A stretch of DNA of 64,000 nucleotides. Source: Patescibacteria group bacterium. Lineage in GTDB: Bacteria; Patescibacteriota; Minisyncoccia; 2-02-FULL-40-12. Under the pieces are notes generated by a model. That model did not search any database. It was not told the DNA's origin and worked only from the letters and a program-made list of their open reading frames with translations. The stretch spans positions 24,215-88,214 of the forward strand of contig JBBTXZ010000005.1 of the NCBI GenBank assembly GCA_038062015.1, read 5' to 3'. The position numbers were made by a program, and so were the translations under genes. Below are positions 1,415 through 60,369 of this stretch, piece by piece (position 1 is the first letter of the stretch; each line of letters starts with the position of its first letter).

Positions 1415-4400
1415 ATGAAGCCTGAATTCAGTTTACCGAGAACAGAAGAAGAAATCCAGAAGTTTTGGGAGGCCAACAAGGTTTTTGAAAAAACTCTCGA
1501 AAACCGCAAGCGAGGCAAAAAATTTGTTTTTTATGAAGGACCGCCCACGGCCAACGGCCTGCCTCACATCGGTCATTTTTTGACCCGGGCGTTTAAGGAT
1601 TTGTTCGTTCGCTATAAAACTATGCGCGGTTTTTTTGTCCCCCGCCGGGCCGGCTGGGATACTCATGGCCTGCCAGTTGAAATAGAAGTTGAAAAAGAGC
1701 TCGGATTGAAATCAAAAAAAGAAATTGAAAAATACGGCATTGCCAAGTTCAATAAAAAAGCAAGGGAATCGGTCTGGCGCTATAAAGGTGAATGGGAGAA
1801 ATTTTCAAAGCGAATCGGATTCTGGCTGGATTTTGACAACCCTTATATCACCTATGCCAATGATTATATTGAAACGCTTTGGCATATAGTTAAGCAGTTT
1901 GATAAGAAAAAATTCCTGTATCAAGGCCATAAAGTTCTGCCCTGGTGCCCGCGCTGCGGTACTACCCTTTCAAGCCATGAAGTCGCTTTAGGATATGAAA
2001 GTATAACCGAGGATTCGGTTTATGTGAAGTTTAAAGTTACTGGCTATGAAAGATCACCGATCTATTTACTTGCTTGGACAACTACGCCTTGGACATTGCC
2101 CGGCAATGTTGCTTTGGCCGTTGGTAAAGATATAACTTATGTTAAGGGTTTTGTGCCGAATAAAGAGGAAATAGAATTTTATATCTTTGCAAAAGACCAA
2201 CTTCCTAAAATTAATGAAATTTTAGGTGAGGATTTGAATATAGTTACAGAATTCCCGGGAGGCGAGCTGGTCGGTTGGGAATACGAGCCCTTATTTGAAG
2301 TCAAAAAACTAAAATCCAATAAATCGTATAAAATTTATCCGGCTGATTTTGTGAATACCGAAGAAGGCGCCGGCGTAGTCCATACCGCGGTGATGTATGG
2401 AGAAGATGATTATCAATTAGGGGAAAAAGTCGGCCTGCCTAAACATCATACAGTAGATAAAGAAGGAAAATTCACTGAAGACGTTCCTGAATTTGCCGGC
2501 AGATTCGTTAAAGATGCCGAAAAAGACGTCATTGCTTACTTAAAAAACAAAAATCTTTTATTTAAAGTTGAACCTTATACTCATGATTATCCTTTTTGTT
2601 GGAGATGCAAAACGCCACTACTCTATTATGCGACCGATTCTTGGTTCGTAAAAACCACAGCCGTAAAAAAACAATTAATCGCCAACAACAAAAAAATAAA
2701 CTGGATTCCGCCCTACATTAAAGAGGGTCGTTTCGGCCAGTGGCTTAAAGAAGTCAAAGACTGGGCTTTTTCGCGAGACAGATATTGGGGAACGCCTCTG
2801 CCAATTTGGCATTGCCAAATTGGCAGAAGTAAAAAGTTAAAAGTTAAAAGTAAAAACTCAGATAATAATGGCTGCGGGAATTATTTAGTTATCGGATCAT
2901 TGGAAGAATTAGAGAAGCACCGCTATCAAAAACCAAACAGATACCATATCATCCGCCATGCCGAAAGCACAAAAAATATTGAGGGCCGGGAAATAAACAG
3001 CGTCAAACTGGAAAGTGATAAATATGATCTGACCGAAAAAGGGATCAACCAGGCCAGAAAATTAGCCAAAGATTTGAAAAACGAAAAAATAGACTTGATT
3101 TTCAGTTCCCCATTTTTAAGAGCTGAAAGAACCGCTGGAATAATAGCTGAAGAGTTGGGGCTTAAAGAAAAAGTTGACCACCGGCTTAAAGAAATAGACC
3201 ACGGAAGCGTCTGTGAAGGCAAGGATTATTTTGCCTGCATACCGAAAGGCCAATACCCTAACAAAGATTTTAACACTAAGTTCGGGCCGGATGGAGAGAG
3301 TCGGAATGACGTCAGAAAAAGAGTTTTTGATTTTATCAAAGAAACCGAAAGCAAATACGAAGATAAAAATATTTTAATCGTTAGCCACGGCGATCCTTTG
3401 TGGTTGATGGAGGGAATTTCAAAAAATCTTGGCGAAGAAGAATTATTTTCGGCGAAAAAGAACCAGATTTTGGGCATAAAAGATAATGCATTTAAGCTCA
3501 TTAAATTTGGAGAAAAAAGAGTTTTGGTTTTCGGCAATTATCCGAGGGATGAATTTGGGAATCCGGATCTTCACCGGCCGTATATAGATGAAGTTTTACT
3601 TAAATGCCCAAATTGTGGCGGCGGGACGCTAAGCGTCCCTGATAGCCACGCTCAGCGTGGCGAAATGAAACGGGTTCCGGAGGTAATTGATGTCTGGTTT
3701 GATTCGGGAGCAATGCCGTTTGCAAGTCGGCCTGACTTCCCGGCTGATTTTATAACCGAAGGCGTAGATCAGACCCGGGGCTGGTTCTACACTCTTTTGG
3801 CTGTTTCAACTCTTTTAGGCAAGAGTAATCCTTACAAAAATGTTATTTCTTTGGGTCATGTTTTGGATAAAGACGGGAAAAAGATGTCCAAGTCGCTTGG
3901 CAACGTGATTAAGCCTGATTATGTTATTGATAAATTCGGAGCTGATATTTCAAGATGGTGGTTTTATGGGGTTAATCAGGCCGGCGAATCAAAAAGTTTT
4001 CGAGAGGAAGAATTGAAAGAAATAACTAACGGCTTTGTCAGGGTGATTATAAATTCTTTGAGGTTTTGGCAATTATATAAAGGAAGTTCTAAAGCTAAAA
4101 TAAATTTCCACGATCTTAAAAATAAAAACTCTTTGAACTTATTAGACAGATGGTTATTATCAAAATGGAACAGTTTAGTTGATTTGGTTACAAAATCTTT
4201 GGATAAATACGACGCTACAACAGCAAGCAGAGAAATTGAAAAATTCGTGATTGAAGATTTATCCAATTGGTGGATTAGAAGAAGCCGGGATAAATTCCAA
4301 GTGCAACAAGGCGCTTCTCAGGAAGATTTACTAAGATTTGTCCTTTTGGAATTGTCGAAGTTAATTGCTCCGTTTGCGCCGTTTTTGGCGGAGTATCTGT

Positions 4401-5026
4401 ATAAGGAACTGCATCATGGTGTTAAGTTAGACGTGGCGAGTATTCATTTTCACAATTGGCCCAAAGCCGACAAAAAGCTGATTGATGAAAAGTTGGAAAA
4501 AGAAATGGAATTAGTGAGAGAGATTGTAAGTCTGGGCTTGGCGGCAAGGAAAGACGCGGGAATTAAGGTGAGGCAACCGCTGGCTTCGCTTGAAGTTTCA
4601 AAGTTTCAAAGTTTCAAAGTTTCAGAAGAGTTATTGAATCTAATAAAAGAGGAAGTGAATGTGAAAGACATAGAATTTAAAAGTTTAAAGTTTAAAGAAA
4701 CTGACAAAGAAGAACTATCGGTTGTTTTGGACACTGAAATTTCGCCGGCTTTAAGAGCCGGGGGTTGGGTTAGAGAATTTATAAGAATAATCCAGGATGC
4801 CCGAAAGGATGTCGGTTATGAATATGATCAAAAAGTCAGGGCTTACTGGTTTACTGAAGACAAATCTTTGGCCGAAGCCATAAAAAGAGAAGAAAAATTC
4901 ATAGTTCAAAAAACGGTTTTGAAAGAACTTCGCCAGTCTAACCACGACCCGAAGTTTGCCTATGATGTTGAAAAAGTCTGGGAGTTGGAACCGGGCCGAA
5001 AAATTTGGCTGGGATTGAAAAAGTGA
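1415..5026 (+). CDS. ileS: Isoleucyl-tRNA synthetase (type 2, eukaryote-like) carrying an internal ~200-aa histidine-phosphatase-like domain insertion
   Basis: HIGH motif (PHIGH), KMSKS, WFDSG and the CPNCGG zinc knuckle. 1203 aa, longer than usual because of the inserted domain (see findings). Confidence 0.95.
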   Translation: MKPEFSLPRTEEEIQKFWEANKVFEKTLENRKRGKKFVFYEGPPTANGLPHIGHFLTRAFKDLFVRYKTMRGFFVPRRAGWDTHGLPVEIEVEKELGLKSKKEIEKYGIAKFNKKARESVWRYKGEWEKFSKRIGFWLDFDNPYITYANDYIETLWHIVKQFDKKKFLYQGHKVLPWCPRCGTTLSSHEVALGYESITEDSVYVKFKVTGYERSPIYLLAWTTTPWTLPGNVALAVGKDITYVKGFVPNKEEIEFYIFAKDQLPKINEILGEDLNIVTEFPGGELVGWEYEPLFEVKKLKSNKSYKIYPADFVNTEEGAGVVHTAVMYGEDDYQLGEKVGLPKHHTVDKEGKFTEDVPEFAGRFVKDAEKDVIAYLKNKNLLFKVEPYTHDYPFCWRCKTPLLYYATDSWFVKTTAVKKQLIANNKKINWIPPYIKEGRFGQWLKEVKDWAFSRDRYWGTPLPIWHCQIGRSKKLKVKSKNSDNNGCGNYLVIGSLEELEKHRYQKPNRYHIIRHAESTKNIEGREINSVKLESDKYDLTEKGINQARKLAKDLKNEKIDLIFSSPFLRAERTAGIIAEELGLKEKVDHRLKEIDHGSVCEGKDYFACIPKGQYPNKDFNTKFGPDGESRNDVRKRVFDFIKETESKYEDKNILIVSHGDPLWLMEGISKNLGEEELFSAKKNQILGIKDNAFKLIKFGEKRVLVFGNYPRDEFGNPDLHRPYIDEVLLKCPNCGGGTLSVPDSHAQRGEMKRVPEVIDVWFDSGAMPFASRPDFPADFITEGVDQTRGWFYTLLAVSTLLGKSNPYKNVISLGHVLDKDGKKMSKSLGNVIKPDYVIDKFGADISRWWFYGVNQAGESKSFREEELKEITNGFVRVIINSLRFWQLYKGSSKAKINFHDLKNKNSLNLLDRWLLSKWNSLVDLVTKSLDKYDATTASREIEKFVIEDLSNWWIRRSRDKFQVQQGASQEDLLRFVLLELSKLIAPFAPFLAEYLYKELHHGVKLDVASIHFHNWPKADKKLIDEKLEKEMELVREIVSLGLAARKDAGIKVRQPLASLEVSKFQSFKVSEELLNLIKEEVNVKDIEFKSLKFKETDKEELSVVLDTEISPALRAGGWVREFIRIIQDARKDVGYEYDQKVRAYWFTEDKSLAEAIKREEKFIVQKTVLKELRQSNHDPKFAYDVEKVWELEPGRKIWLGLKK

Positions 5027-5040
5027 TAGGATAGAGTTAA

Positions 5041-6738
5041 ATGATCCGTCGAATAATAATCGGTTTATTCATTCTTTTGATTTTCGGCACGGCTATTTTT
5101 TTGTTGTACCGGAGCGGATTCCGCGAAGGCAATGTCATTTTTAAAATAGAAGCTCCGGACCAAGTCTCATCCGGAGAAGAAATTGAATACCGGCTCATCA
5201 TTGAAAACAGAAACAATTTTGATTTGAATAACACCAAGCTTTCGTTGTCTTATCCCGGCGGAACGATTTGGTTCAATAAAGAAGGCCAGCCGTCCAATTC
5301 GGCGATCAATAATATTGATTCAGCCGGGTTTCAAAGACGCGAGAGAAAAGAATTTATTTTAAGGGCAATTTTGACCGGCGAAAAAGGCGAGATTAAAAAA
5401 ATAAAGGCCGAATTCACTTATAGCCCGAGCGGCATCAAGCCGGTTTTTCAAAAAAGCGCCGAAGCCGGAACAACCATTTCGAAAGTTTCCATCCCTCTAA
5501 CTTTGAGCGGGCCGCCCAATGTCCTGCCCGGCCAACTGGTTCAGATCTCCCTTGATTTAAGAAATGAAACCGAAGATGACTTTAAGGATTTAGAAGTAGT
5601 TTTTTCCTATCCCGACGGCTTCATTTTCAAAAAAGCTTCGTTTTTGCCGAACCAGAGCAATAACGTATTTAATTTGTCTTTGCTTAAATCAGGGGAAGGC
5701 GTGAGGATTACTATTGAAGGCAATGTTTCCGGTTTTGAAAAAGAAAGCAAAAGATTTATCGCCGCATTAAAAAGAAAAATAGACGGGAAATTCTTTGATT
5801 TTCAAAAAACCCAGGTTCTGCTTACTGTTTCGTCGCCTCTTTTAGCCCTTGATGTTTTAGTGAATGATTCAAAAGATTATATCGCTAAAGCCGGAGACAA
5901 TTTAAAATATAAGATTATATTTTCAAATAATTCCGACAATAACTTTTCAGCTTTGGAATTGTCCGTTAAGCTTGAAGGCCAGATGTTTGACTTGGTTAGT
6001 TTGAAGACCAGCGGCTTTTTTGATCAAAACTCCAGGACAATTTTATGGAACGCGGCCGCCGAGCCGGCACTGGCGAATTTAAGCCCCAATCAAAGGGGAG
6101 AAGTTTCTTTTGATATTAATCTCAAGCCGGATTTTCCAAAGGCTTTCGGCAAAAATTATTCTTTGAAGGCGGGTTCTTCAATCCAGACTTCGTCGGTGCC
6201 TCCGGATTTTAATTTGGATAAGATTACGGCTTTAGCCGAATTGATTACCAAAGTTAAATCAAAGACTGATTTCATCTCCAAAGCTTTTTATAATGATTTA
6301 GTGTTTTCAAACACGGGTCCGGTGCCGCCGCAAGTTGGCCAAAAGACCACTTATACGATACATTGGAAGATAGTCAACGAGGGTAATGACCTGACCAATG
6401 TCAGAATCGTTTCGTCGCTTTTACCAGGCATCAGTTGGGAGAATAAATTTAAAATTATGCCGATCCAGTCAGATTTGAATTATAGTCTTTCAACCGGACA
6501 GATTTCCTGGAGTGTTCCGACTGTGCCAGCCGGAACCGGAATTGTTTCCCCGGTTTTTGAAGCGGTTTTTCAGGTTGGTGTAACGCCAAGCGTGAATCAA
6601 TCCGGCCAGAATTTGGGGATTTTAAAAGAGGTGGTTTTTGAAGCGGTTGATAACTTCACCAAAGAGAAAATTAATTTAAGTCAGCCCGGGATTAATACCC
6701 AGTTCGGGGTGGATTCTCCGGGGACGGTGCAGCCATAA
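5041..6738 (+). CDS. Hypothetical membrane-anchored, beta-rich extracytoplasmic protein
   Basis: N-terminal TM helix (IIIGLFILLIFGTAIFLLY), then a long S/T/N-rich region with repetitive beta-strand-like segments. No recognisable catalytic motif. Confidence 0.5.
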   Translation: MIRRIIIGLFILLIFGTAIFLLYRSGFREGNVIFKIEAPDQVSSGEEIEYRLIIENRNNFDLNNTKLSLSYPGGTIWFNKEGQPSNSAINNIDSAGFQRRERKEFILRAILTGEKGEIKKIKAEFTYSPSGIKPVFQKSAEAGTTISKVSIPLTLSGPPNVLPGQLVQISLDLRNETEDDFKDLEVVFSYPDGFIFKKASFLPNQSNNVFNLSLLKSGEGVRITIEGNVSGFEKESKRFIAALKRKIDGKFFDFQKTQVLLTVSSPLLALDVLVNDSKDYIAKAGDNLKYKIIFSNNSDNNFSALELSVKLEGQMFDLVSLKTSGFFDQNSRTILWNAAAEPALANLSPNQRGEVSFDINLKPDFPKAFGKNYSLKAGSSIQTSSVPPDFNLDKITALAELITKVKSKTDFISKAFYNDLVFSNTGPVPPQVGQKTTYTIHWKIVNEGNDLTNVRIVSSLLPGISWENKFKIMPIQSDLNYSLSTGQISWSVPTVPAGTGIVSPVFEAVFQVGVTPSVNQSGQNLGILKEVVFEAVDNFTKEKINLSQPGINTQFGVDSPGTVQP

Positions 6739-6787: not shown

Positions 6788-8098
6788 ATGGAAGATAAGT
6801 TAAGCAAAATTGTTTCACTGGCCAAGCGCCGGGGTTTTATTTTCCCCGGTTCGGAGATTTACGGAGGGTTAGCCAACAGCTGGGACTATGGGCATGTTGG
6901 CAATGAACTGTTCAACAATCTAGCCAGTCTTTGGTGGAGTAAATTCGTTACCGAAAGAGACGACATGGTTGGAGTCAGAGGGACGGTCATAATGAATCCC
7001 AAAGTCTGGGAAGCTTCGGGCCATTTGCAGAGTTTCACTGACCCTCTCATCGAATGCAAAATTTGCCACAAAAGAATAAGGGCCGATAAAGAGGAAGAAA
7101 AACTGACCCACGAAGAATCGCACAACAACAAGAAAGAGAATCCGATATGGACCGAACCGAAAAATTTCAACCTTCTTTTCAAGACGTTTATCGGTTCGGT
7201 TGAAGACCAAAAGTCGGCCGTTTATTTAAGAGGAGAACTGGCCCAGACGATGTTTACGGATTTTAAGACGGTTTTAGACACCAATCGGCTCAAGCTGCCC
7301 TTTGGCATTGCCCAGATTGGCAAAGCTTTCAGAAATGAAATTACCACCGGTAATTTCATCTTCAGAACTAAAGAGTTTACGATAGCCGAGCTCGAATACT
7401 TTGTGAAGCCCGGCGAGGAAAATAAATATTTCAGGGAATGGCAGAATTTTATGGAAGAATTTCTGACCAACGAAATAGGCATCAAAAAAGAAAATCTAAA
7501 TTTATACGAACATCCCAAAGAGTCGCTGGCCCATTATTCAAAAGGGACGATTGATTTCCAGTATAAATTTCCGTGGGGCTGGGATGAACTGTGGGGGCTT
7601 GCTTCGAGAACTGATTACGATTTGAAAAATCACGAGAATTTTTCGGGAGAAAATCTTAAATATAAAGATCCGGAAACAGGAGATGAATTCTGGCCCTATG
7701 TGGTCGAACCTACCAGCGGATTAGACAGACTAATGCTGGCAGTATTGCTGGAATCATATAGTGAAGATGAAGACAGGGTGGTATTGAAATTTAAGCCCAA
7801 ACTGGCGCCGTATAAAGTTGGCATATTTCCATTACTAGCTAATAAGCCGGATTTGGTTAAGAAAGCGCGGGCGATTTACGAAGGTCTGAAAAAAGATTTT
7901 GAGGTTGTTTGGGACGACCGAGGCAATATCGGAAAAAGGTATTACTCGCAGGACGAAATCGGAACGGCTTGGTGCGTGACAATTGACCATCAGACCTTGG
8001 AAGACGATACGGTCACGGTCCGCGACCGTGACACGATGAAACAAGGAAGAATTAAGATTGAAGAGTTAAATAATTATTTTGAAGAACGGCTAAAATAG
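6788..8098 (+). CDS. glyQS: Glycyl-tRNA synthetase (dimeric class II type)
   Basis: N-terminus RGFIFPGSEIYGG...WDYG and overall alpha2-type GlyRS sequence pattern. Confidence 0.9.
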   Translation: MEDKLSKIVSLAKRRGFIFPGSEIYGGLANSWDYGHVGNELFNNLASLWWSKFVTERDDMVGVRGTVIMNPKVWEASGHLQSFTDPLIECKICHKRIRADKEEEKLTHEESHNNKKENPIWTEPKNFNLLFKTFIGSVEDQKSAVYLRGELAQTMFTDFKTVLDTNRLKLPFGIAQIGKAFRNEITTGNFIFRTKEFTIAELEYFVKPGEENKYFREWQNFMEEFLTNEIGIKKENLNLYEHPKESLAHYSKGTIDFQYKFPWGWDELWGLASRTDYDLKNHENFSGENLKYKDPETGDEFWPYVVEPTSGLDRLMLAVLLESYSEDEDRVVLKFKPKLAPYKVGIFPLLANKPDLVKKARAIYEGLKKDFEVVWDDRGNIGKRYYSQDEIGTAWCVTIDHQTLEDDTVTVRDRDTMKQGRIKIEELNNYFEERLK

Positions 8099-11942: not shown

Positions 11943-13439
11943 ATGGCCGGAAAATTTTCTATTACAACTGCGATACCGTATGTAAATGCCAAAGGGCATG
12001 TGGGTTTTGCCATGGAGTTGATTCAAGCTGATGTGCTTGCCCGATTTGAGCGGCTTAGAGGAAATAATGTTTTTTTCTTAACCGGAACAGATGAAAATGC
12101 TCTCAAAAATGTGCAGGCGGCGGAAAAAGCGAATAAACCAATTAGAGAATTTATCGATGAACACGCTAAAAGTTTCATTGAGCTTGCTAAATTGCTCAAT
12201 ATATCAAATGACGATTTTATAAGAACTACAGAAGGAAGGCACATAAAGGGGGCCCAGAAACTTTGGCGGGCCTGTGAAGCGGCCGGCGATATTTATAAGA
12301 AAAAATATAAAGGTTTGTATTGCGTCGGATGCGAGGAGTTTAAAACAGAAAAAGATTTAATAGACGGATTATGCCCCGAGCATAATACTAAACTCGAAGA
12401 AATCGAAGAAGAAAACTACTTTTTCAGATTGTCTAAGTATCAGGATAAAGTCGAGAAACTTATTTTTTCAGATGAGTTGCGAATTGTGCCGATAACCCGG
12501 AAGAACGAGGCCTTAAGTTTTATCCGTCAAGGATTGCAAGATTTCAGTATTTCTCGCAGCCGGGAACGAGCTAAAAATTGGGGGATTCCTGTTCCCGGGG
12601 ACGACAGTCAGATAATTTACGTGTGGTATGACGCGTTAACCTGGTTTATAAACGCTCTCGGGTATTCTGATAACGAAGAAAAGTTTAAATTGTGGTGGAG
12701 TGATCGCAACATAGATCTTATCGGCAAGGGGATAAATAGATTTCATACGATTTACTGGCCGGTGATGTTAATTTCCGCCGGTCTTCTTCCGCCCAAGGAA
12801 ATATATATTCACGGATACATAACCATTGGCGGCGAAAAAATATCCAAATCCCTCGGCAACACAATTGACCCAGTTGATTTAGTCGGAAAATACGGAGTAG
12901 AAATTGTTCGTTATTTTCTTTTGCGGGAAATTCCGTCAGACGGCGACGGTGATTTTTCTGTCAAAAAATTAGAGGCCCGCCACAATGCGGATTTAGCTAA
13001 TAATTTAGGGAATTTGGTTTCGCGGGTTGTCGCTTTGATAGAAAAGTTTTTCAGCGGCAGTTTTAACTACTCCCGAAGATTTGTTTTAAAAGAAGTTGAC
13101 GATAAAGTGATTGATATATGGAAAAAGTACAATGAAAACATAAATAATTTTAAGCTCCACATTGCTTTAGAAAATATTTTTTCTTTGGTTGATTTCGCTA
13201 ATTTATATATTGATGAGCATAAACCCTGGTCTTTGGGCGATAATCCGGAGCATCTGAATGAAGTTATGACAAATCTGATTGTGATTTTACTTAATGTGGC
13301 TTGGTTTTTAAAGCCGTTTCTGCCTGAAACTTCAAACAGGATTTTCGGTATTTTAGGCGCGGATAAAGATGGTAAATCGTGGGAAGAAAAACCGTTTCAG
13401 GTCAAACCGGAAATTTTATTTCCGAAAATAGAGCAATGA
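11943..13439 (+). CDS. metG: Methionyl-tRNA synthetase (short form, no C-terminal tRNA-binding domain)
   Basis: N-terminal ITTAIPYVNAKGHVG region, zinc knuckle CVGCEEF...CPEH, and KISKS (KMSKS) motif. Confidence 0.9.
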   Translation: MAGKFSITTAIPYVNAKGHVGFAMELIQADVLARFERLRGNNVFFLTGTDENALKNVQAAEKANKPIREFIDEHAKSFIELAKLLNISNDDFIRTTEGRHIKGAQKLWRACEAAGDIYKKKYKGLYCVGCEEFKTEKDLIDGLCPEHNTKLEEIEEENYFFRLSKYQDKVEKLIFSDELRIVPITRKNEALSFIRQGLQDFSISRSRERAKNWGIPVPGDDSQIIYVWYDALTWFINALGYSDNEEKFKLWWSDRNIDLIGKGINRFHTIYWPVMLISAGLLPPKEIYIHGYITIGGEKISKSLGNTIDPVDLVGKYGVEIVRYFLLREIPSDGDGDFSVKKLEARHNADLANNLGNLVSRVVALIEKFFSGSFNYSRRFVLKEVDDKVIDIWKKYNENINNFKLHIALENIFSLVDFANLYIDEHKPWSLGDNPEHLNEVMTNLIVILLNVAWFLKPFLPETSNRIFGILGADKDGKSWEEKPFQVKPEILFPKIEQ

Positions 13440-13565
13440 AATATAATCCTCAAAAAATTGAGAAGAAGTGGTCCCGATTTTGTCTCCGACAAAGTCGGAG
13501 CTATAAAATCGAGGATCCTCGATTTGTTGATTGTGCTTCGCGCAAAACAAATCGGGACAGAAATT
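13437..13565 (+). other. ~130-bp insertion at the metG/leuS junction: duplicated leuS 5' end plus a nested-hairpin structured element
   Basis: atgaaatataatcctcaaaaaattgagaagaagtgg at 13436 duplicates the true leuS start atgaaatataatccaaacaaaatagaacgaaaatgg at 13566. Between them: long-range stem gtcccgattt/aaatcgggac enclosing the hairpin ctccgac-aaa-gtcggag and the 20-bp palindrome aaatcgaggatcctcgattt. Confidence 0.7.
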
Positions 13566-15986
13566 ATGAAATATAATCCAAACAAAATAGAACGAAAATG
13601 GCAACGTTACTGGGAGAATAAAAAACTTTATCAAACTAAAGATAAAGTCAAAGGCAAGAAAAATTTTTATCATTTGGTGATGTTTCCTTATACTTCAGGC
13701 GATCTTCATATGGGACATTGGTATAATTATGCGCCATCAGACGTATATGCCCGTTTCAAGCGGATGCAGGGATTAAATGTAATGGCGCCGATCGGTTTTG
13801 ACGCTTTCGGGCTTCCGGCTGAAAATGCGGCCATCCAAAGAAATATCAATCCGGCTGATTGGACCAGACAAAATATCTCGTATATGACCAAGCAATTAAA
13901 AAGCATGGGCGCAATTTTTGACTGGTCGAGAAAAGTAGAAACAATTGACCCCGAATACTATAAATGGACCCAGTGGATATTTTTGAAGTTTTATGAAAAG
14001 GGTTTGGCTTATCGAGCTAAAACAAAAGTAAATTGGTGTCCTAAGGATAAAACTGTTTTGGCTAACGAGCAGGTCGTGGATAATTGCTGCGAAAGGTGTG
14101 GGACTCAGGTGGTTCAGAAAGAATTAGTTCAGTGGATGTTTAAAATCACAAAATATGCCGATCAGCTTATTGATGATTTGGAAAAACTTGATTGGCCTGA
14201 AATAACTAAAACCGCCCAGAAGAATTGGATAGGAAGATCGCAGGGAGCAGTTATAAAATTTCAAGTTGAAAATTCAAAGAATTATGTAGATGTTTTTACG
14301 ACTAGGCCTGATACTATTTTCGGCGCTACTTTTATGGTTTTAGCGCCGGAGCATGAATTGGTTAAGAAAATTACTAAAGATCAATTTTTAGGCCAAGTAA
14401 ATAATTATCTTGAGAATGCAAAAAAGAAAACAGAGCTTGAAAGATTGGCTGAAGTAAAAGAAAAGACAGGGGTTTTTACTGGTGCTTATGCTTTCAATCC
14501 GGCAACCAAAGAGAAAATTCCGATTTGGATTTCTGATTTTGTTTTGCCTCATTACGGTACTGGCGCGATTATGGCTGTTCCGGCCCATGATGAAAGGGAT
14601 TTTGAGTTTGCAAAGAAGTTTAATTTATCCATTAGGGAAGTTATTGGCGGCGGCGATATTTTAAAAGAAGCGTACGAAGGCGAAGGTAAATTGATTAATT
14701 CGGGGAAGTTTTCCGGAATGGATTCTGAAAAAGCCAAGTGGGAAATTACAGAATTTGTCGGCGGAAAGAAAATGATTTCTTATCGGCTGCACGACTGGAT
14801 AATTTCTCGTCAGCGGTATTGGGGGGCGCCGATCCCAATGGTTTATTGCCAGAAATGTGATTGGCAGCCAGTTTCAGAAAAAGATTTGCCGGTTTTACTG
14901 CCTAAAATAAGAGATTACAAACCCCCTGGAACTGGAGAGCCGCCTTTAGTTAAAGCTAAAGATTGGCTCAATGTAAAATGTCCAAGATGTTTCGGTCAAG
15001 CTCGGCGTGAGACGGATACCATGGATGCTTTCGTTGATTCGGCTTGGTATTTTCTGCGATATAGCGATCCAAAAAACAAAAAACAATTTGCTTCAAAAGA
15101 CAAATTGGAGTCTTGGCTTCCGGTAGATATGTATATCGGCGGCCAGGAGCACGCCACTAAACACCTGCTTTATGCCAGATTTATAACCAAAGTTTTGAAT
15201 GACTCTGGTTATTTGAGTTTTGACGAGCCGTTTAAGACTATGAGGCATCAAGGTCTGATTTTGGGCCTTGACGGGAATAAAATGTCTAAATCAAGAGGCA
15301 ATATAGTTGATCCCGATGAAATGGTTAAGAAATTTGGTTCAGATTCTGTTCGAATGTATCTTTGTTTTATGGGGCCTTATGAAAACGGCGGACCTTGGGA
15401 TCCGAAAGCGATTGTTGGAGTATTCAGATTCCTAAACCGAGTTTGGAATCTGATAAAACCCAAATTCCAAAATCCAAATGACAAATCAATTCCAAATTCC
15501 AAAATCCAAAACAAAGAATTAGATAAAGTTTTCAATAAAGCGATTAAAAAAGTTGGCGAAGATATAGAAAACTTAAGATTTAACACAGCGGTGAGCGAAT
15601 TGATGAAGTTACTTAACGAAATAGAAGATTTTATTAATAAAGGTTTTACGTTTCAAGTTTCAAGCTTCAAGGTCTTTTTGAAATTGCTGGCGCCATTCGC
15701 GCCGCATTTAGCTGAAGAGCTTTGGCATCAGATTGGGAACAAAAAATCAATCCATTTAGAAAAGTGGCCGGAGTATAACCCGAAACTTATTGAAGATGAG
15801 ACAGTTGATTTGGTGATTCAAGTTAATGGCCGGACTCGGGATGTAATCAAAGCCCCGCATGATTTAACCGAGCCGCAAGCCCGCGAATTGGCTCTAGCTT
15901 CGGAAAAAATCAAAAAATACGTTTCCGGAAAAGAAATCAAAAAATTTATTTACATCCCCAACAAAATCGCTAATATAGTAATTTAA
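13566..15986 (+). CDS. leuS: Leucyl-tRNA synthetase
   Basis: HMGH (HIGH) motif and KMSKS. Start placed at MKYNPNKIERKWQ (the track ORF begins upstream inside the insertion). Carries an in-frame 'ccaaaatccaaa' repeat at ~15459..15511. Confidence 0.9.
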   Translation: MKYNPNKIERKWQRYWENKKLYQTKDKVKGKKNFYHLVMFPYTSGDLHMGHWYNYAPSDVYARFKRMQGLNVMAPIGFDAFGLPAENAAIQRNINPADWTRQNISYMTKQLKSMGAIFDWSRKVETIDPEYYKWTQWIFLKFYEKGLAYRAKTKVNWCPKDKTVLANEQVVDNCCERCGTQVVQKELVQWMFKITKYADQLIDDLEKLDWPEITKTAQKNWIGRSQGAVIKFQVENSKNYVDVFTTRPDTIFGATFMVLAPEHELVKKITKDQFLGQVNNYLENAKKKTELERLAEVKEKTGVFTGAYAFNPATKEKIPIWISDFVLPHYGTGAIMAVPAHDERDFEFAKKFNLSIREVIGGGDILKEAYEGEGKLINSGKFSGMDSEKAKWEITEFVGGKKMISYRLHDWIISRQRYWGAPIPMVYCQKCDWQPVSEKDLPVLLPKIRDYKPPGTGEPPLVKAKDWLNVKCPRCFGQARRETDTMDAFVDSAWYFLRYSDPKNKKQFASKDKLESWLPVDMYIGGQEHATKHLLYARFITKVLNDSGYLSFDEPFKTMRHQGLILGLDGNKMSKSRGNIVDPDEMVKKFGSDSVRMYLCFMGPYENGGPWDPKAIVGVFRFLNRVWNLIKPKFQNPNDKSIPNSKIQNKELDKVFNKAIKKVGEDIENLRFNTAVSELMKLLNEIEDFINKGFTFQVSSFKVFLKLLAPFAPHLAEELWHQIGNKKSIHLEKWPEYNPKLIEDETVDLVIQVNGRTRDVIKAPHDLTEPQARELALASEKIKKYVSGKEIKKFIYIPNKIANIVI

Positions 15987-29509: not shown

Positions 29510-29860
29510 TTGCTTGCCAAGCTCGCAAATAAATTCCGCATGATAAACGAAGAATTGAAAAATTTAGTTTCCAGTTTAGGGACTTTGGTAATCGTTGAAA
29601 ATAATCAGCCGAAATTTATAGTCATGACCTATGATAAATTTAATTCAGTTATCCACAAAAGCATTGACAATTCTAGTAATTTTAATAAAGATAGTAATGA
29701 GACGCTAAGCGTTTCTGGTTATCACGCTCAGCGTGATGAGGAGATAGTTAATCGGTTGAATGAAGAAATATTTGCTTTAAAGGAGCAGGTAGTTGAAAAA
29801 GAAAAAGAATTTAGTAATTTGTCTGAGCGCAGCGATAGCGAGCACAGCGACAAATTCTAA
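29510..29860 (+). CDS. Small hypothetical protein (Phd/YefM-like N-terminal segment + coiled coil) inserted between fusA and tuf
   Basis: ORF 116 aa. Contains an in-frame double-hairpin element (gacgctaagcgtt...cacgctcagcgtg at 29702..29736). Flanked by repeat-family hairpins at 29441..29509 and 29861..29950. Confidence 0.45.
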
Positions 29861-58516: not shown

Positions 58517-60369
58517 TAAGTACCAGAAATTTTGTCATCATCGCTCACATAGACGCAGGCAAGTCCACTTTGGCGGATCGGTTTTTGGAATTAACCGGAA
58601 CAATTGAAAAAAGAAAGATGCAGGAGCAGTTTTTGGATATGCATCCTTTAGAAAGAGAACGGGGGATTACGATTAAACTTCAGCCGGTAAGGATGAATTA
58701 TGGTGATTATATTCTGAATTTGATTGATACTCCGGGCCATGTTGATTTTTATTATGAGGTTTCGCGATCTTTGGCTGCAGTTGAAGGAGCCATTCTTTTA
58801 ATAGATGCCACTAAAGGAATTCAGGCCCAGACCCTTTCAAACTATAATTTTGCCCTTAGGCAGGGCCTTACAATAATTCCAGTTATAAATAAAATTGACT
58901 TGCCTAACGCTCAAGTGGAAAAAATTGAAGAAGAAGTGATAAATTTAACCGGAGCAAAAAGAGAAGATATTTTTAAGATTTCAGCCAAAATAGGGACTGG
59001 GATTGAAGATGTTTTGAGAGCGGTGATAGAAAGAGTGCCGCCGCCGCGCTCAGCGCGGCTGTCTGGGACGCTAAGCGTCCCGCCCAAAGGGAAGGCCGAG
59101 TCTCTCCAAGCTCTTATTTTTGATTCAAAATTTGATACTTATAAAGGAATAATTGCCTATGTCAGAATTTTTAGCGGTAAGGTTAAGACTGGAGATAAAA
59201 TTAAATTTGCAGTTCAAAATCAAATTGCCGAAGCAATTGAAGTTGGTTATTTTAAACCGAATTTGGAAAAATCAGGAAGCTTGAATGATGGTGAAATCGG
59301 CTATATCGCTACTGGTTTGAAAGATATTTCTAGAGTCAGGGTTGGCGACACGATTATTTTAGCCGATTCTGACGCTTCAGCTTTGCCGGGCTATGAAGAG
59401 CCGAATCCTTTTGTTTTTGCCAGTTTGTATCCCCGCAATGCCAACGATTTCAGTTATCTTAGGGAATCTTTGGAAAAGTTAAAGCTTCAGGATTCTTCTT
59501 TGCGTTTTGAGCCGGAGCATTCCGATGCTTTGGGTCCGGGTTTCCGGTGCGGATTTCTAGGGATGCTTCATGCTGAAATTGTTTCAGAGCGGCTGAAAAG
59601 GGATTTTAGTTTGGATTTAATTATTACTTCGCCCTCGGTTGAGTACGAAGTAAAATTAAAAAGTAAAAATGACCCATCCGATAAAACTCAGGGTCATCCT
59701 GAGCGAAGTCGAACGGATGAAAAATTAAAAATTAAGTCTGCTTCGAAACTTCCGGATCCAAGTCAGATAGATATAATTTTAGAGCCGATGGTGGAAATTG
59801 AAATTTTGAGTCCAACCCAATACTTAGGGCAGATAATGAAACTGATGCCGGATTATCGGGCTCAGTATATTGAAACAAGTTATTTGAGTTCTGAAACCAT
59901 TATTTTAAAATACCACGTGCCTTTAGCCGAAATAATTATTGATTTTTATGACAAATTAAAAAGTATCAGCTCTGGTTTTGCTTCGATGAATTATAAATTT
60001 ACCGATTTTAAAGAATCTGACTTAGTTAAGTTAGATATTTTGATTGGTGGTGAGCCCGTCGAACCATTTTCGCGGATTGTGCCTCGTGAGAATTCTTATC
60101 AGGAAGGAAAAAGAGTGGTTGAAAAATTAAAAGAGATAATGCCGCCGCAATTATTCACTTTGGCTTTGCAGGCGGCGATTGGGGGTAAAATTATTGCGCG
60201 GGAAACGATTAATGCCCGCCGAAAAGACGTAACCGGTTATCTCTATGGCGGCGATGTGACCAGAAAGATGAAGCTTTTGAAGAAACAGAAACGCGGCAAG
60301 GAGCGGCTCAAAGAAAGTGGTCGCGTGGAAATTCCGCAAGAGGTTTATTTGGAGATACTTAAGAAATGA
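58513..60369 (+). CDS. lepA: Elongation factor 4 (LepA), GTG start, with an in-frame palindromic insertion
   Basis: [22 protein letters not shown] and the LepA C-terminal domain. Inserted ...RSARLSGTLSVPP... in the ERVPPP-G loop. Confidence 0.92.
   Translation: MISTRNFVIIAHIDAGKSTLADRFLELTGTIEKRKMQEQFLDMHPLERERGITIKLQPVRMNYGDYILNLIDTPGHVDFYYEVSRSLAAVEGAILLIDATKGIQAQTLSNYNFALRQGLTIIPVINKIDLPNAQVEKIEEEVINLTGAKREDIFKISAKIGTGIEDVLRAVIERVPPPRSARLSGTLSVPPKGKAESLQALIFDSKFDTYKGIIAYVRIFSGKVKTGDKIKFAVQNQIAEAIEVGYFKPNLEKSGSLNDGEIGYIATGLKDISRVRVGDTIILADSDASALPGYEEPNPFVFASLYPRNANDFSYLRESLEKLKLQDSSLRFEPEHSDALGPGFRCGFLGMLHAEIVSERLKRDFSLDLIITSPSVEYEVKLKSKNDPSDKTQGHPERSRTDEKLKIKSASKLPDPSQIDIILEPMVEIEILSPTQYLGQIMKLMPDYRAQYIETSYLSSETIILKYHVPLAEIIIDFYDKLKSISSGFASMNYKFTDFKESDLVKLDILIGGEPVEPFSRIVPRENSYQEGKRVVEKLKEIMPPQLFTLALQAAIGGKIIARETINARRKDVTGYLYGGDVTRKMKLLKKQKRGKERLKESGRVEIPQEVYLEILKK

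Follow-up and report, generated by a model that had tools for sequence, protein, structure and literature searches.

A predicted histidine-phosphatase domain within CP3, the zinc-knuckle subdomain of a Patescibacteria isoleucyl-tRNA synthetase

The isoleucyl-tRNA synthetase (IleRS) gene of a Patescibacteria bacterium contains a segment of ~210 codons that a sequence-only reading had assigned to a histidine phosphatase. Is this a genuine enzyme nested in the core of an essential synthetase, where did it come from, and on what might it act? The window, that is, the whole 64-kb stretch of DNA analysed, comes from a groundwater Patescibacteria (Candidate Phyla Radiation, CPR) bacterium. The features of the gene are collected in Table 1.

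The ileS frame was uninterrupted and formed one ORF. The protein scored 848.7 bits against the TIGR00392 ileS profile (cut-off 621.4), with the alignment in two stretches, and the IleRS body matched the Pfam families tRNA-synt_1, Anticodon_1 and DUF5915. With this score, HIGH, KMSKS, a CP1 editing domain and an anticodon-binding domain, it is assigned to the type-2 IleRS of TIGR00392; the editing motifs TTTPWT and GxGxVHxA were invariant in the ortholog alignment. It shares its family and domain order (HIGH, CP core, CP1 editing, CP2, CP3 four-Cys zinc knuckle, KMSKS, anticodon-binding, DUF5915 C-terminal) with the type-2 (eukaryote/archaea-like, mupirocin-resistant) enzymes of T. thermophilus (1ILE) and Priestia megaterium (IleRS2, 8C8U/8C8V), and IleRS2 and TtIleRS were its best PDB matches. 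The AF2 model of the body compared with 1ILE gave a TMt of 0.92, suggesting that its fold is undisturbed by the nested domain. Neither a second IleRS nor a phosphatase paralog was found within the 64-kb window. From its position as sole IleRS there, the invariant active-site motifs and the undisturbed modelled fold, we infer that aminoacylation is kept despite the insert. The protein is not a member of ileS_w_GNAT (NF040702), against which it scored 332.7 bits (cut-off 1999), and it had no acetyltransferase Pfam match. NCBI labels such fusion proteins merely 'class I tRNA ligase family protein', which the nested phosphatase accounts for.

Table 1. Features of the ileS gene and of its nested domain (positions in the window)
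Feature	Position	Strand	Basis and remarks
ileS, type-2 (mupirocin-resistant-like) isoleucyl-tRNA synthetase, 1203 aa including the nested domain	1415..5026	+	ORF call, TIGR00392, Pfam
HIGH signature, aa 51-54	1565..1576	+	Motif scan; H54 invariant in orthologs
WAFSRDRYWG, aa 450-459, N-terminal boundary of CP3	2762..2791	+	Motif; W450, S453, R454, R456, W458 invariant
CP3 N-terminal remnant: first zinc-knuckle Cys pair C467/C487, conserved GSLEELEK strand/helix	2792..2926	+	Junction alignment; C467 invariant, C487 at least 90% conserved
Lys-rich low-complexity insert IGRSKKLKVKSKNSDNN, aa 469-485	2819..2869	+	Between both Cys of the first pair; window-specific, separate from the phosphatase
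His_Phos_1 (branch 1) insert, aa ~505-716	2927..3562	+	PF00300, subfamily HMM, alignment to stand-alone homologs, AF2, Foldseek
R514-H515, RHG-type motif (IIRHAES)	2954..2959	+	H515 predicted phospho-accepting nucleophile; aligns to RHAES of PspA 4ij5
R569 (FLRAERT), second phosphate-binding arginine	3119..3121	+	Invariant
E593 (LKEIDHG), predicted general acid	3191..3193	+	Invariant in fusions; Asp in stand-alone forms
H658 (VSHGDPLW), second catalytic histidine	3386..3388	+	Invariant; DPLW tail is the subfamily signature
CP3 C-terminal remnant: DLHRPYID, second zinc-knuckle Cys pair C731/C734	3563..3688	+	H720, P722, D725, C731, C734 invariant; aligned to 8c8u from residue 486
38-nt palindromic double-hairpin repeat, in frame, encoding GTLSVPDSHAQR	3623..3660	+	Separate feature, outside the phosphatase
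DVWFDSG, aa 759-765; start of second Rossmann half, end of CP3	3689..3709	+	D759, W761, D763, G765 invariant
KMSKS signature, aa 823-827	3881..3895	+	Motif scan; K823, S825, K826 invariant

The insert corresponds to a whole stand-alone protein of ~190 aa followed by a C-terminal linker of ~10 aa, as judged by full-length alignment to stand-alone homologs. On the full protein, PF00300 (His_Phos_1) matched aa 511-665 (E=5.4e-32, profile positions 2-154 of 194) with 111.5 bits against a gathering cut-off of 21.7; the excised 206-aa segment alone gave E=1.8e-33, and a subfamily HMM spanned aa 506-706. The assignment made by the sequence-only reading was thus borne out, and the peptides that it quoted are all present, in the order LEELEKHRYQKPNRY, HIIRHAEST, SSPFLRAERTAGI, ILIVSHGDPL and DLHRPYIDEVLLKCPNCGG. 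The insert begins after LEELEKHRYQKPNRY and ends before DLHRPYIDEVLLKCPNCGG; the start given earlier, 2941, lies one base out of frame, as codon 510 begins at 2942. AF2 modelled the insert alone as a confident, independent domain (pLDDT 90.6, pTM 0.89), and a 1060-aa model (pLDDT 89.5, pTM 0.85) reached a pLDDT of ~95 at both insert junctions. Foldseek with the insert model returned 4IJ5/4IJ6, 4PZ9 and 1H2E at probability 1.00 and TM 0.70-0.71. These models predict an alpha/beta phosphoglycerate-mutase-like fold.

This fold is shared with the small branch-1 phosphatases Hydrogenobacter PspA (4IJ5/4IJ6), Mycobacterium GpgP Rv2419c (4PZ9), Bacillus PhoE/YhfR (1H2E), CobC (6NRU) and HFP (9MMH), at TM 0.67-0.71 and 24-31% identity. 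They have the same R-H...R...E...H set, and the RHAES motif is common to PspA and the insert. The insert differs from them in its own SHGDPLW signature and falls below all curated family cut-offs, including the NCBIfam equivalog cut-offs of dPGM_arch (100.1 vs 225 bits), PspA (91.6 vs 350) and CobC (79 vs 163); other dPGM models gave 16-37 bits against cut-offs >300. A dPGM identity was rejected on these scores and because the closest structures are phosphatases. Likewise, the PspA score and the 30-31% identity to 4IJ5/4IJ6 do not place the insert among PspA-type phosphoserine phosphatases. The earlier description as phosphoglycerate-mutase-like therefore stands for the superfamily and falls for a mutase. 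R514, H515, R569, E593 and H658 were 100% invariant in 112 IleRS fusion orthologs (55-86% identity), and R514-H515 also across 36 mixed fused and stand-alone sequences. Collectively, these results make it very probable that the domain is real, folded and, by prediction, catalytically competent. Its cap region varies from clade to clade, suggesting that the substrate may not be uniform.

The insertion site lies in CP3, which, with its zinc motif, is defined as in PMC7191050. P. megaterium IleRS2 (8c8u) aligned in two blocks (query 9-469 with chain 12-461, query 717-1139 with chain 486-896), leaving 247 window residues opposite 24 reference residues. Insert-less IleRS has ~24 residues at this place; in the junction alignment the empty site was visible in insert-less Parcubacteria IleRS, and the insertion point was the same in every fusion clade. 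The ortholog alignment proposed earlier thus showed that the insertion is found throughout the lineage, always at one point. The junction sequence consists of ordinary conserved IleRS and phosphatase residues. CP3 measures ~299 aa in the window; its yeast counterpart, residues 459-526, has ~68 aa (PMC7955072). The difference arises from a whole enzyme lodged between the first and the second Cys pair. In yeast IleRS the WxxSRxRYWG segment is the CP2-CP3 linker lining the tRNA CCA / reveromycin pocket, and the window DVWFDSG corresponds to D527/W529, in the tRNA-site pocket (PMC7955072). CP3 hangs between WxxSRxRYWG and DxWFDSG, both lining the tRNA-CCA / synthetic-site pocket.

Could this arrangement be an artefact? 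An identical protein was found in three independent assemblies, and the phosphatase-in-IleRS architecture occurred in >100 clusters from NCBI, JGI, ENA and Logan. The GC of the insert (0.385) matched that of its flanks (0.40), with GC3 likewise equal. Together with the single ORF, these observations reject, with near certainty, an assembly chimera, a frameshifted gene pair or an intein-like removed element; the segment contained no Intein/Hint or homing-endonuclease domain, and PF00300 was its only match. A recent horizontal insertion was ruled out by the equality of GC and GC3 with the flanks and by the presence of the insert in orthologs down to ~50% identity. Three apparently 'split' IleRS were explained by masked N runs (L054, L056) or a single frameshift (L033). 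As the insert occupies the same point in the IleRS of hundreds of Patescibacteria species with all five catalytic residues invariant, the insertion is old and under selection.

PF00300 was present in 120/120 best-matching IleRS homologs, and the subfamily pattern [IV][VI][SG]H[GC]DPLW retrieved 348 species genomes. Eighty species-level loci comprised 65 (+2 probable) fusions, 11 stand-alone genes directly upstream of ileS and 2 contig-end cuts. An unlinked copy of this DPLW subfamily was found in none of the 78 evaluable species-level genomes (67 inside ileS, 11 directly upstream), and among the genes examined none stood free of an aminoacyl-tRNA synthetase (aaRS) or Sua5 partner. The closest stand-alone homologs, 'PhoE-like' Parcubacteria proteins of ~190 aa (P0004; P0015, which is AMJ50_01130 of Parcubacteria DG_74_3; P0051), lay immediately 5' of an ileS that lacks the insert in 14/14 loci, with a stop-to-start spacing of -11 to +20 nt. 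argS adjoins in this syntenic locus. The stand-alone proteins are 40-48% identical to the insert over their full length and share with it DPLW, the catalytic residues, the partner enzyme and the syntenic neighbourhood. They differ in being separate polypeptides, in having Asp for the general-acid Glu and in lacking the Cys pair CEGxxxxxC, which is conserved in the window's fusion clade.

When the IleRS core and the phosphatase domain were each placed in a neighbour-joining tree, both computed without support values, IleRS with a stand-alone partner turned up at three separate positions, and a stand-alone-like phosphatase domain was present in one of the fused clades (L024/L032/L043). The fused form and the abutting separate gene are a Rosetta-stone pair: the same phosphatase is fused in some lineages and encoded upstream in others, so that both enzymes probably work together. 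We consider functional coupling of the phosphatase to IleRS quite probable. Domain capture, one origin raised by the sequence-only reading, is supported by these comparisons, with the stand-alone homolog immediately upstream of ileS in related lineages as a plausible donor. The same reading also raised a regulatory or editing-related phosphatase activity; none of the present findings points to editing.

The IleRS of other CPR bacteria carry 2-4 phosphatase copies at three loops: CP3, between DxWFDSG and DQxRGWF, and past KMSKS where the anticodon-binding domain joins on (site C). R-H-R-E-H was kept in 17/17 complete copies, and 6 contigs, the longest of 1.06 Mb, carried the two-copy form. An intact NUDIX domain was inserted at the CP-core/CP1 hinge in ~20 further CPR IleRS clusters, 10 of them also with His_Phos; by Pfam, the window IleRS had no NUDIX domain. 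The DPLW subfamily was also fused to the C-terminus of ArgRS, which could simply reflect argS as a neighbour in the syntenic locus, and once to Sua5/YrdC, a singleton on a 3.7-kb contig. A Rhodanese domain was present in one IleRS (P0400) and a GNAT domain in the IleRS family NF040702. A QueC-like fusion (P0352) and tandem two-domain proteins (P0289, P0363) have a generic His_Phos without DPLW and were not counted as evidence.

What might the domain do? With a little less than even confidence, we propose that it is an active accessory phosphohydrolase working in cis with IleRS, whose substrate would be a phosphate-containing product or by-product generated by the adenylate chemistry. The domain would be positioned where the synthetic site opens and would remove a phosphate-bearing species arising as ATP is converted to aminoacyl-AMP + PPi and then to AMP. 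The first candidate substrate would be pyrophosphate, whose removal would pull activation forward; AMP or another nucleotide phosphomonoester would be next, and in NUDIX-bearing lineages the phosphatase may act downstream, once NUDIX has cut a dinucleoside or nucleoside polyphosphate. IleRS, ArgRS and Sua5 are all ATP-dependent and release PPi. The activities classically associated with branch-1 histidine phosphatases are those of phosphomonoesterases or mutases, and PPi hydrolysis is, to our knowledge, not an established one. The nearest structures (PspA, GpgP, PhoE, CobC, HFP) are small phosphatases of phospho-acids or ribose/ribityl 5'-phosphates. A search of the 64-kb window with an approximate E. 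coli Ppa sequence gave no ppa-like match, an uninformative negative. Tentatively, we propose that the phosphatase acts on PPi or on a nucleotide arising as product or by-product, as hinted at by the NUDIX inserts, the ArgRS and Sua5 fusions, the CP3 anchors lining the CCA/synthetic pocket (PMC7955072, PMC7191050) and the nearest structures. Also tentatively, Patescibacteria IleRS may have a built-in phosphohydrolase module (a His phosphatase, in some 2-4 copies and/or with NUDIX) whose task at the synthetic site would be to process a nucleotide or a tRNA end, the upstream gene supplying the same activity in trans in insert-less lineages. Candidate roles of such a module are the destruction or recycling of PPi/AMP, possibly by PPi-driven AMP rephosphorylation via phospho-histidine, or the healing of 3'-(pyro)phosphorylated tRNA.

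Several other readings have to be weighed against a phosphohydrolase of the adenylate chemistry. The domain could be a passenger, a housekeeping small-molecule phosphatase (e.g. for phosphoserine or a sugar phosphate) hosted in a permissive IleRS loop or co-transcribed, gaining co-expression in a tiny genome with no link to aminoacylation. The NUDIX, Rhodanese and GNAT domains of CPR IleRS could just as well be signs that the synthetase readily accommodates such enzymes, the closest characterised relatives are metabolic phosphatases, and window-specific repeat-derived peptides in CP3 indicate a loop that tolerates junk. We nevertheless regard a passenger as unlikely, given the ileS linkage in 78/78 evaluable genomes under two architectures, junctions predicted to be ordered rather than floppy, and the recurrence of nested insertions, with as many as 4 intact copies, in three different loops of a catalytic domain that is essential, which neutral hitch-hiking would not predict. 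A non-catalytic structural brace, phosphate-binding tRNA clamp or allosteric sensor would agree with the rigid integration predicted by the high junction pLDDT and the pTM of 0.85. Pseudo-enzymes normally lose catalytic residues, and the five invariant residues in the 112 orthologs and in all complete multi-copy domains make such a role highly improbable.

Healing of the tRNA 3'-end is a further alternative, in which a 2'/3'-phosphate would be taken off A76 of tRNA(Ile) before aminoacylation or, with NUDIX, a 3'-pyrophosphate as added by toxSAS/CapRel-type toxins. CP3 is anchored on both segments forming the tRNA CCA pocket, the NUDIX hinge adjoins the 3'-end travel path and site C borders the anticodon-binding domain; NUDIX plus phosphatase would fit a two-step conversion of 3'-PP to 3'-OH, given toxSAS chemistry. 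However, repairing tRNA(Ile) alone would hardly pay off physiologically where a toxin attacks many tRNAs, Sua5/YrdC is not known to bind tRNA, and Foldseek placed no RNA-end phosphatase among the structural neighbours of the insert; we know of none in branch 1. We therefore consider tRNA healing decidedly unlikely. Lastly, by analogy, the domain could reverse an inhibitory phosphorylation of IleRS or a neighbouring aaRS. HipA/HipT kinases phosphorylate a KMSKS-loop serine of GltX/TrpS, and PGAM5, Sts-1 and SixA use the histidine-phosphatase fold on proteins. A tether to class-I aaRS (IleRS, ArgRS) and several copies placed around the catalytic domain would suit an eraser acting in cis, but the loci inspected contained no kinase partner, the Sua5 fusion fits poorly and the closest relatives are small-molecule enzymes, so that a protein phosphatase seems very unlikely. 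As to anti-phage defence, no PADLOC or defence-like match was found.

Editing domains apart, we are not aware of any aminoacyl-tRNA synthetase whose catalytic core houses an additional enzyme. We found no description of an IleRS with His_Phos or NUDIX in the literature, and the text of a recent survey of 96,219 IleRS domain architectures does not contain 'phosphatase', 'Patescibacteria' or 'CPR'. The ileS_w_GNAT family (N-acetyltransferase) and the NUDIX-bearing CPR IleRS are precedents for an extra catalytic domain, although the inserted fold differs from that in the window. A CobC-like His_Phos is fused to a nucleic-acid enzyme in the bifunctional RNase H / acid phosphatase (NF005567, Rv2228c type), which the insert matched weakly (66.8 bits vs 326); that fusion is terminal and has another partner, whereas the window phosphatase is nested. 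New here are the upstream stand-alone homologs, the complete ileS linkage, the multi-copy and NUDIX forms and the ArgRS and Sua5 fusions. A phosphatase that is catalytically intact, by its residues, is thus nested in an essential synthetase core across a large part of the CPR, and its linkage to ileS persists even as separate genes. If the domain acts on the aminoacylation product or the tRNA end, this would be a new accessory function for synthetases and would bear on how ultra-small, energy-poor cells run translation; the pair of fused and operon forms is suited to experiments.

CP3 carries two further extras. The Lys-rich insert was missing in more than half of 120 orthologs, and with a pLDDT <50 at aa 471-484 it is predicted to be disordered. 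The RPE-like element that the sequence-only reading had noticed after the phosphatase is real: it is the double-hairpin repeat, which has three further copies in the window (4 against 0-0.08 expected) and was not found at this place in IleRS orthologs (8c8u and ortholog alignments). In the 1060-aa model the repeat-encoded aa 738-746 had a pLDDT <50, and stem changes among the copies were compensatory.

The isoleucyl-tRNA synthetase (IleRS) encoded by ileS matched NCBIfam TIGR00392 at 848.7 bits (cut-off 621.4) in two separate stretches and contained the Pfam domains tRNA-synt_1, Anticodon_1 and DUF5915. Between the IleRS halves, Pfam placed His_Phos_1 (PF00300) at aa 511-665 (E=5.4e-32; 111.5 bits, cut-off 21.7), and the excised insert of 206 residues matched the same profile at E=1.8e-33. 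As a reference we took P. megaterium IleRS2 (8c8u), which has the closest solved structure. Residues 9-469 of the window protein aligned with 12-461 of the 8c8u chain and residues 717-1139 with 486-896, so that 247 residues of the window protein stand opposite 24 residues of ordinary IleRS. The profile match and this alignment confirm a phosphatase domain inside IleRS, as a sequence-only reading had proposed. Every peptide quoted in that reading is present in the ORF; the start coordinate it gave misses the reading frame by one base, codon 510 starting at 2942. Within the 64-kb window there was no second phosphatase copy and none upstream of ileS.

The insert lies between the WAFSRDRYWG and DVWFDSG motifs, an interval that in yeast and Candida is the CP3 subdomain (ScIleRS 459-526, CaIleRS 473-534; PMC7955072, PMC7191050). 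The CP3 anchors, 'linker CP2-3' (453-ARDWNVSRNRYWG-465) and D527/W529, both contribute to the reveromycin A pocket, described by the authors as the tRNA binding site (PMC7955072). All four zinc-knuckle cysteines are kept in the window protein; in the ortholog alignment C467, C731 and C734 were invariant and C487 at least 90% conserved. The phosphatase is nested between the first and second Cys pairs, and all fusion clades examined have one common insertion point (...GS.EEL.k...kN.Y / ..RHG ... kn.P.ne.G.lD / HRPyID).

The insert in ileS is neither an artefact nor recent. Three contigs assembled separately from 0.1-µm filtrates of Hainich groundwater (including GCA_964359985.1) encode the identical 1203-aa protein, and the GC content is 0.385 in the insert and 0.402 and 0.399 in the flanking ileS parts. 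The best 120 IleRS homologs in a collection of 5.8 billion proteins (49-100% identity, 949-1245 aa) all carried PF00300 and were labelled Yanofskybacteria, Taylorbacteria, Paceibacterota or Parcubacteria. An artefact can practically be dismissed as the explanation, and the earlier interpretation is supported as a lineage-wide phosphatase insert in Patescibacteria IleRS.

The main new result is that the phosphatase inserted into IleRS is an operon partner of IleRS in other lineages. A search with the insert alone returned mostly ~190-aa stand-alone Parcubacteria proteins (36-48% identity), whose alignment to the insert starts a few residues ahead of the RHG motif and runs through the last strand. 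The insert in effect amounts to one entire stand-alone phosphatase plus a ~10-residue linker. At all three loci looked up, the stand-alone gene was immediately 5' of an insert-less ileS (946-958 aa) on the same strand, in the gene order argS ... ileS, recO, DUF7619/DUF11 protein, class-II aaRS, which is syntenic with the window 3' of ileS. Of 185,579 species-representative genomes scanned for the signature [IV][VI][SG]H[GC]DPLW (the DPLW subfamily), 348 encode a relative. The best 80 loci from these genomes comprised 65 in-line fusions, 2 probable fusions cut by a contig end, 11 stand-alone genes directly upstream of ileS and 2 in which the contig ended right behind the phosphatase; none of the 80 had a phosphatase without ileS linkage. 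In 14 stand-alone loci the phosphatase stop was -11 to +20 nt from the ileS start, several being ATGA overlaps. These results show that the phosphatase is tied to IleRS, physically or by operon. Occurrence as either a fused or a directly upstream phosphatase is a classic Rosetta-stone pattern, and it is the strongest argument that both enzymes work together. This comparative evidence strongly suggests functional coupling of the phosphatase to IleRS, which we consider highly probable.

Conservation was assessed on 112 aligned fusion proteins, which share 55-86% identity with the window protein in the part that aligns. Insert columns without any variation were N508, R514 and H515 (the RHG-type motif), L539, S565, R569 (second arginine), E593 (general acid), R636 and H658 (second histidine), and include all five members of the catalytic set (R514, H515, R569, E593, H658). 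From its residues the inserted domain looks catalytically competent. An AlphaFold2 model of the insert alone had a mean pLDDT of 90.6 and a pTM of 0.89. Its Foldseek neighbours were small phosphatases (TM 0.67-0.71, 24-31% identity), namely PspA (4IJ5/4IJ6), GpgP (4PZ9), PhoE (1H2E), CobC (6NRU) and HFP (9MMH). Since the insert scored below the curated cut-off of every named family, including PspA (92 against 350) and CobC (79 against 163), it represents a distinct subfamily; the description 'phosphoglycerate-mutase-like' therefore holds at the superfamily level but not at the family level (dPGM_arch, 100 against 225). A model of residues 1-1060 built from the 112-sequence alignment had a pLDDT of 89.5 (~95 at both insert junctions) and a pTM of 0.85, the only internal stretches below 50 being aa 471-484 and 738-746, and the modelled IleRS body matched Thermus IleRS with a TMt of 0.92. 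From the junction pLDDT and this match, the prediction is that the phosphatase is ordered, forms an integral portion of IleRS and leaves the synthetase fold intact.

An exhaustive phmmer search with the insert against 1.84 billion cluster representatives gave 760 matches at E<=1e-10. The best 148 new representatives comprised 79 with IleRS sequence, 63 short proteins and 6 long ones without detected IleRS similarity, one of which (P0343) was on inspection an IleRS CP3 fragment. Placing the copies by a subfamily HMM and IleRS landmarks revealed more than one phosphatase domain in several IleRS of other CPR lineages, at three insertion sites. Examples for site A, in CP3, are the window protein, P0253, P0254, P0297, P0301 and, each with a tandem pair, P0310 and P0490; for site B, between DxWFDSG and DQxRGWF, P0311, P0283 and P0301; and for site C, after KMSKS and before the anticodon-binding domain, P0254, P0311, P0283, P0297, P0440 and P0445. 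Two to four His_Phos domains are present in P0254, P0311, P0283, P0301, P0297, P0310, P0250 (four copies), P0440, P0445 and P0490. The R-H...R...E...H set is kept in 17 of 17 complete copies of multi-copy IleRS, and the two-copy P0311 belongs to a six-member cluster (P0311 and five others) on contigs up to 1.06 Mb.

A NUDIX domain was found in P0253 and about twenty further IleRS clusters. In P0253 its insertion point is the CP-core/CP1 hinge (positions 190 to 212 in the numbering of the window protein), and its Nudix box (GKVDGDETFEQAAHREAEEELG) is intact. An architecture scan of 120 CPR IleRS around P0253, using the subfamily HMM and a Nudix-box pattern, found NUDIX with His_Phos in 10 (P0253, P0395-P0402, P0417), NUDIX only in 11 (named taxa Moranbacteria and Falkowbacteria), His_Phos only in 68 (including Peregrinibacteria, Gracilibacteria and Buchananbacteria) and no extra domain in 31. 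The NUDIX-only handles are P0406-P0409, P0411, P0412, P0414, P0422, P0432, P0433, P0436 and P0495; NUDIX-bearing CPR IleRS are labelled Moranbacteria, Falkowbacteria or 'Patescibacteria group'. P0400, with NUDIX and His_Phos, has a Rhodanese domain as well. The analysis shows that domains similar to the phosphatase entered surface loops of the IleRS catalytic core repeatedly. The DPLW subfamily is also joined to the C-terminus of ArgRS (P0245, L090:5001-7070), in a syntenic locus without ileS where recO directly follows the fusion, and, in a singleton on a 3.7-kb contig, C-terminally to a Sua5/YrdC domain (P0280, L091:977-2140).

Neighbour-joining trees, built without support values for the IleRS core and for the phosphatase domain, did not cleanly separate fused from stand-alone forms. 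IleRS with a stand-alone partner fell in three places, and in one clade (loci L024, L032, L043 and L042) the fused domains were closer to stand-alone proteins than to other fused domains. Because the trees are mixed yet the insertion point is identical everywhere, site A may have been entered a single time, with fissions afterwards, or repeatedly by way of the upstream gene. Sites B and C clearly stem from additional insertion events.

The insert is shown to be a folded domain of the histidine-phosphatase type whose catalytic residues are all strictly conserved. We propose that it would be an active phosphohydrolase acting in cis with the synthetase. Its substrate would be a product or by-product of adenylate chemistry that carries phosphate. 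The first candidate is PPi, followed by AMP or a different nucleotide phosphomonoester; this assignment is possible but tentative. IleRS, ArgRS and Sua5 have in common an ATP-dependent chemistry with PPi release, and NUDIX enzymes hydrolyse the pyrophosphate bond of nucleoside-diphosphate-X compounds. Such a substrate is favoured because the three hosts of the subfamily all release PPi and because NUDIX is co-inserted in the same enzymes. It is also favoured because several copies round a single active site would suit the trapping of a product that diffuses away, because the structural neighbours CobC, HFP and RosC act on ribose/ribityl 5'-phosphates, and because CP3 and the CP core, which host the domains, border the synthetic-site/CCA pocket (PMC7191050, PMC7955072). 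Against it, the Sua5 fusion is a singleton and the ArgRS fusion may be simply a product of gene adjacency. PPi in particular is disfavoured in that we know of no established PPi hydrolysis among branch-1 enzymes.

The location at the CCA pocket and the pairing of NUDIX with phosphatase would also suit healing of tRNA 3' ends, which fits poorly with specificity for a single tRNA and is unlikely. A metabolic phosphatase carried as a passenger in a permissive IleRS loop is a rather unlikely reading. A protein phosphatase that undoes Hip-like phosphorylation is improbable, and a non-catalytic module highly improbable.

The component families, IleRS and histidine phosphatase, are textbook. Fused IleRS sequences are already in NCBI and UniRef with precomputed Pfam hits; their NCBI name (P0121, P0123, P0130, P0135 and others) goes no further than 'class I tRNA ligase family protein'. 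The JGI label on some stand-alone phosphatases (P0053, P0054) is 'isoleucyl-tRNA synthetase'. The insert is presumably the cause of the under- and mis-annotation of these proteins. A GNAT-containing IleRS model in NCBIfam (NF040702) provides a precedent for extra IleRS domains. Full-text literature searches found no description of an IleRS that carries a histidine phosphatase or a NUDIX domain, and the words 'phosphatase', 'Patescibacteria' and 'CPR' are absent from the text of a 2026 preprint on the domain architectures of 96,219 IleRS sequences. A conserved and apparently active phosphohydrolase nested in an aaRS, together with its operon form, is thus apparently new.

Features of ileS and of the window
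Feature	Position (nt)	Strand	Residues (aa)	Remark
ileS	1415..5026	+	1203	isoleucyl-tRNA synthetase, single unbroken ORF
WAFSRDRYWG			450-459	N-terminal side of interval holding insert
Lys-rich peptide	2819-2869		469-485	low complexity
GIKDNAFKL	~3470-3496		~686-694	9 aa, C-terminal part of phosphatase
DVWFDSG			759-765	C-terminal side of interval holding insert
38-nt repeat	3623-3660			in ileS
38-nt repeat	29699-29736			
38-nt repeat	59044-59081			opposite orientation, in 623-aa ORF
38-nt repeat	60626-60663			
DUF11/DUF7619 protein	5041-6738		~550	CLIPPER-like
class-II aaRS	6788-8098		~436	tRNA-synt_2b + HGTP_anticodon
second class-Ia synthetase-like gene	12609-15773	+		21% identity to IleRS core

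Synteny 3' of ileS is conserved across Parcubacteria (L004-L009, L090), the DUF11/DUF7619 protein gene being followed by that of the class-II aaRS; between these two, relatives have recO and the window does not. In a Yanofskybacteria MAG, a frameshift shortly before the phosphatase domain (L033:4838-5040) breaks ileS into 525- and 707-aa ORFs. The splits of ileS in loci L054 and L056 were only apparent, masked N runs being responsible. The Lys-rich peptide of ileS (IGRSKKLKVKSKNSDNN), between the first two zinc-knuckle cysteines, is encoded by A-rich, visibly repetitive DNA (...AAAAGTTAAAAGTTAAAAGT...) and predicted to be disordered; most orthologs are without it, and L010 and L024 have other Lys-rich inserts at this position. 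GIKDNAFKL is missing in more than half of 120 orthologs and partly common to a close relative (cf. DETLSL in L010). The 38-nt GC-rich double-hairpin repeat (GGGACGCTAAGCGTCCC-TGATAG-CCACGCTCAGCGTGG) has compensatory stem changes between copies. All four copies are within ORFs and read through, three of them giving the peptide ..GTLSV..SHAQR.., and by analogy the repeat behaves like a Rickettsia palindromic element. Its copy in ileS accounts for 13 aa absent from orthologs and disordered by AF2 prediction.
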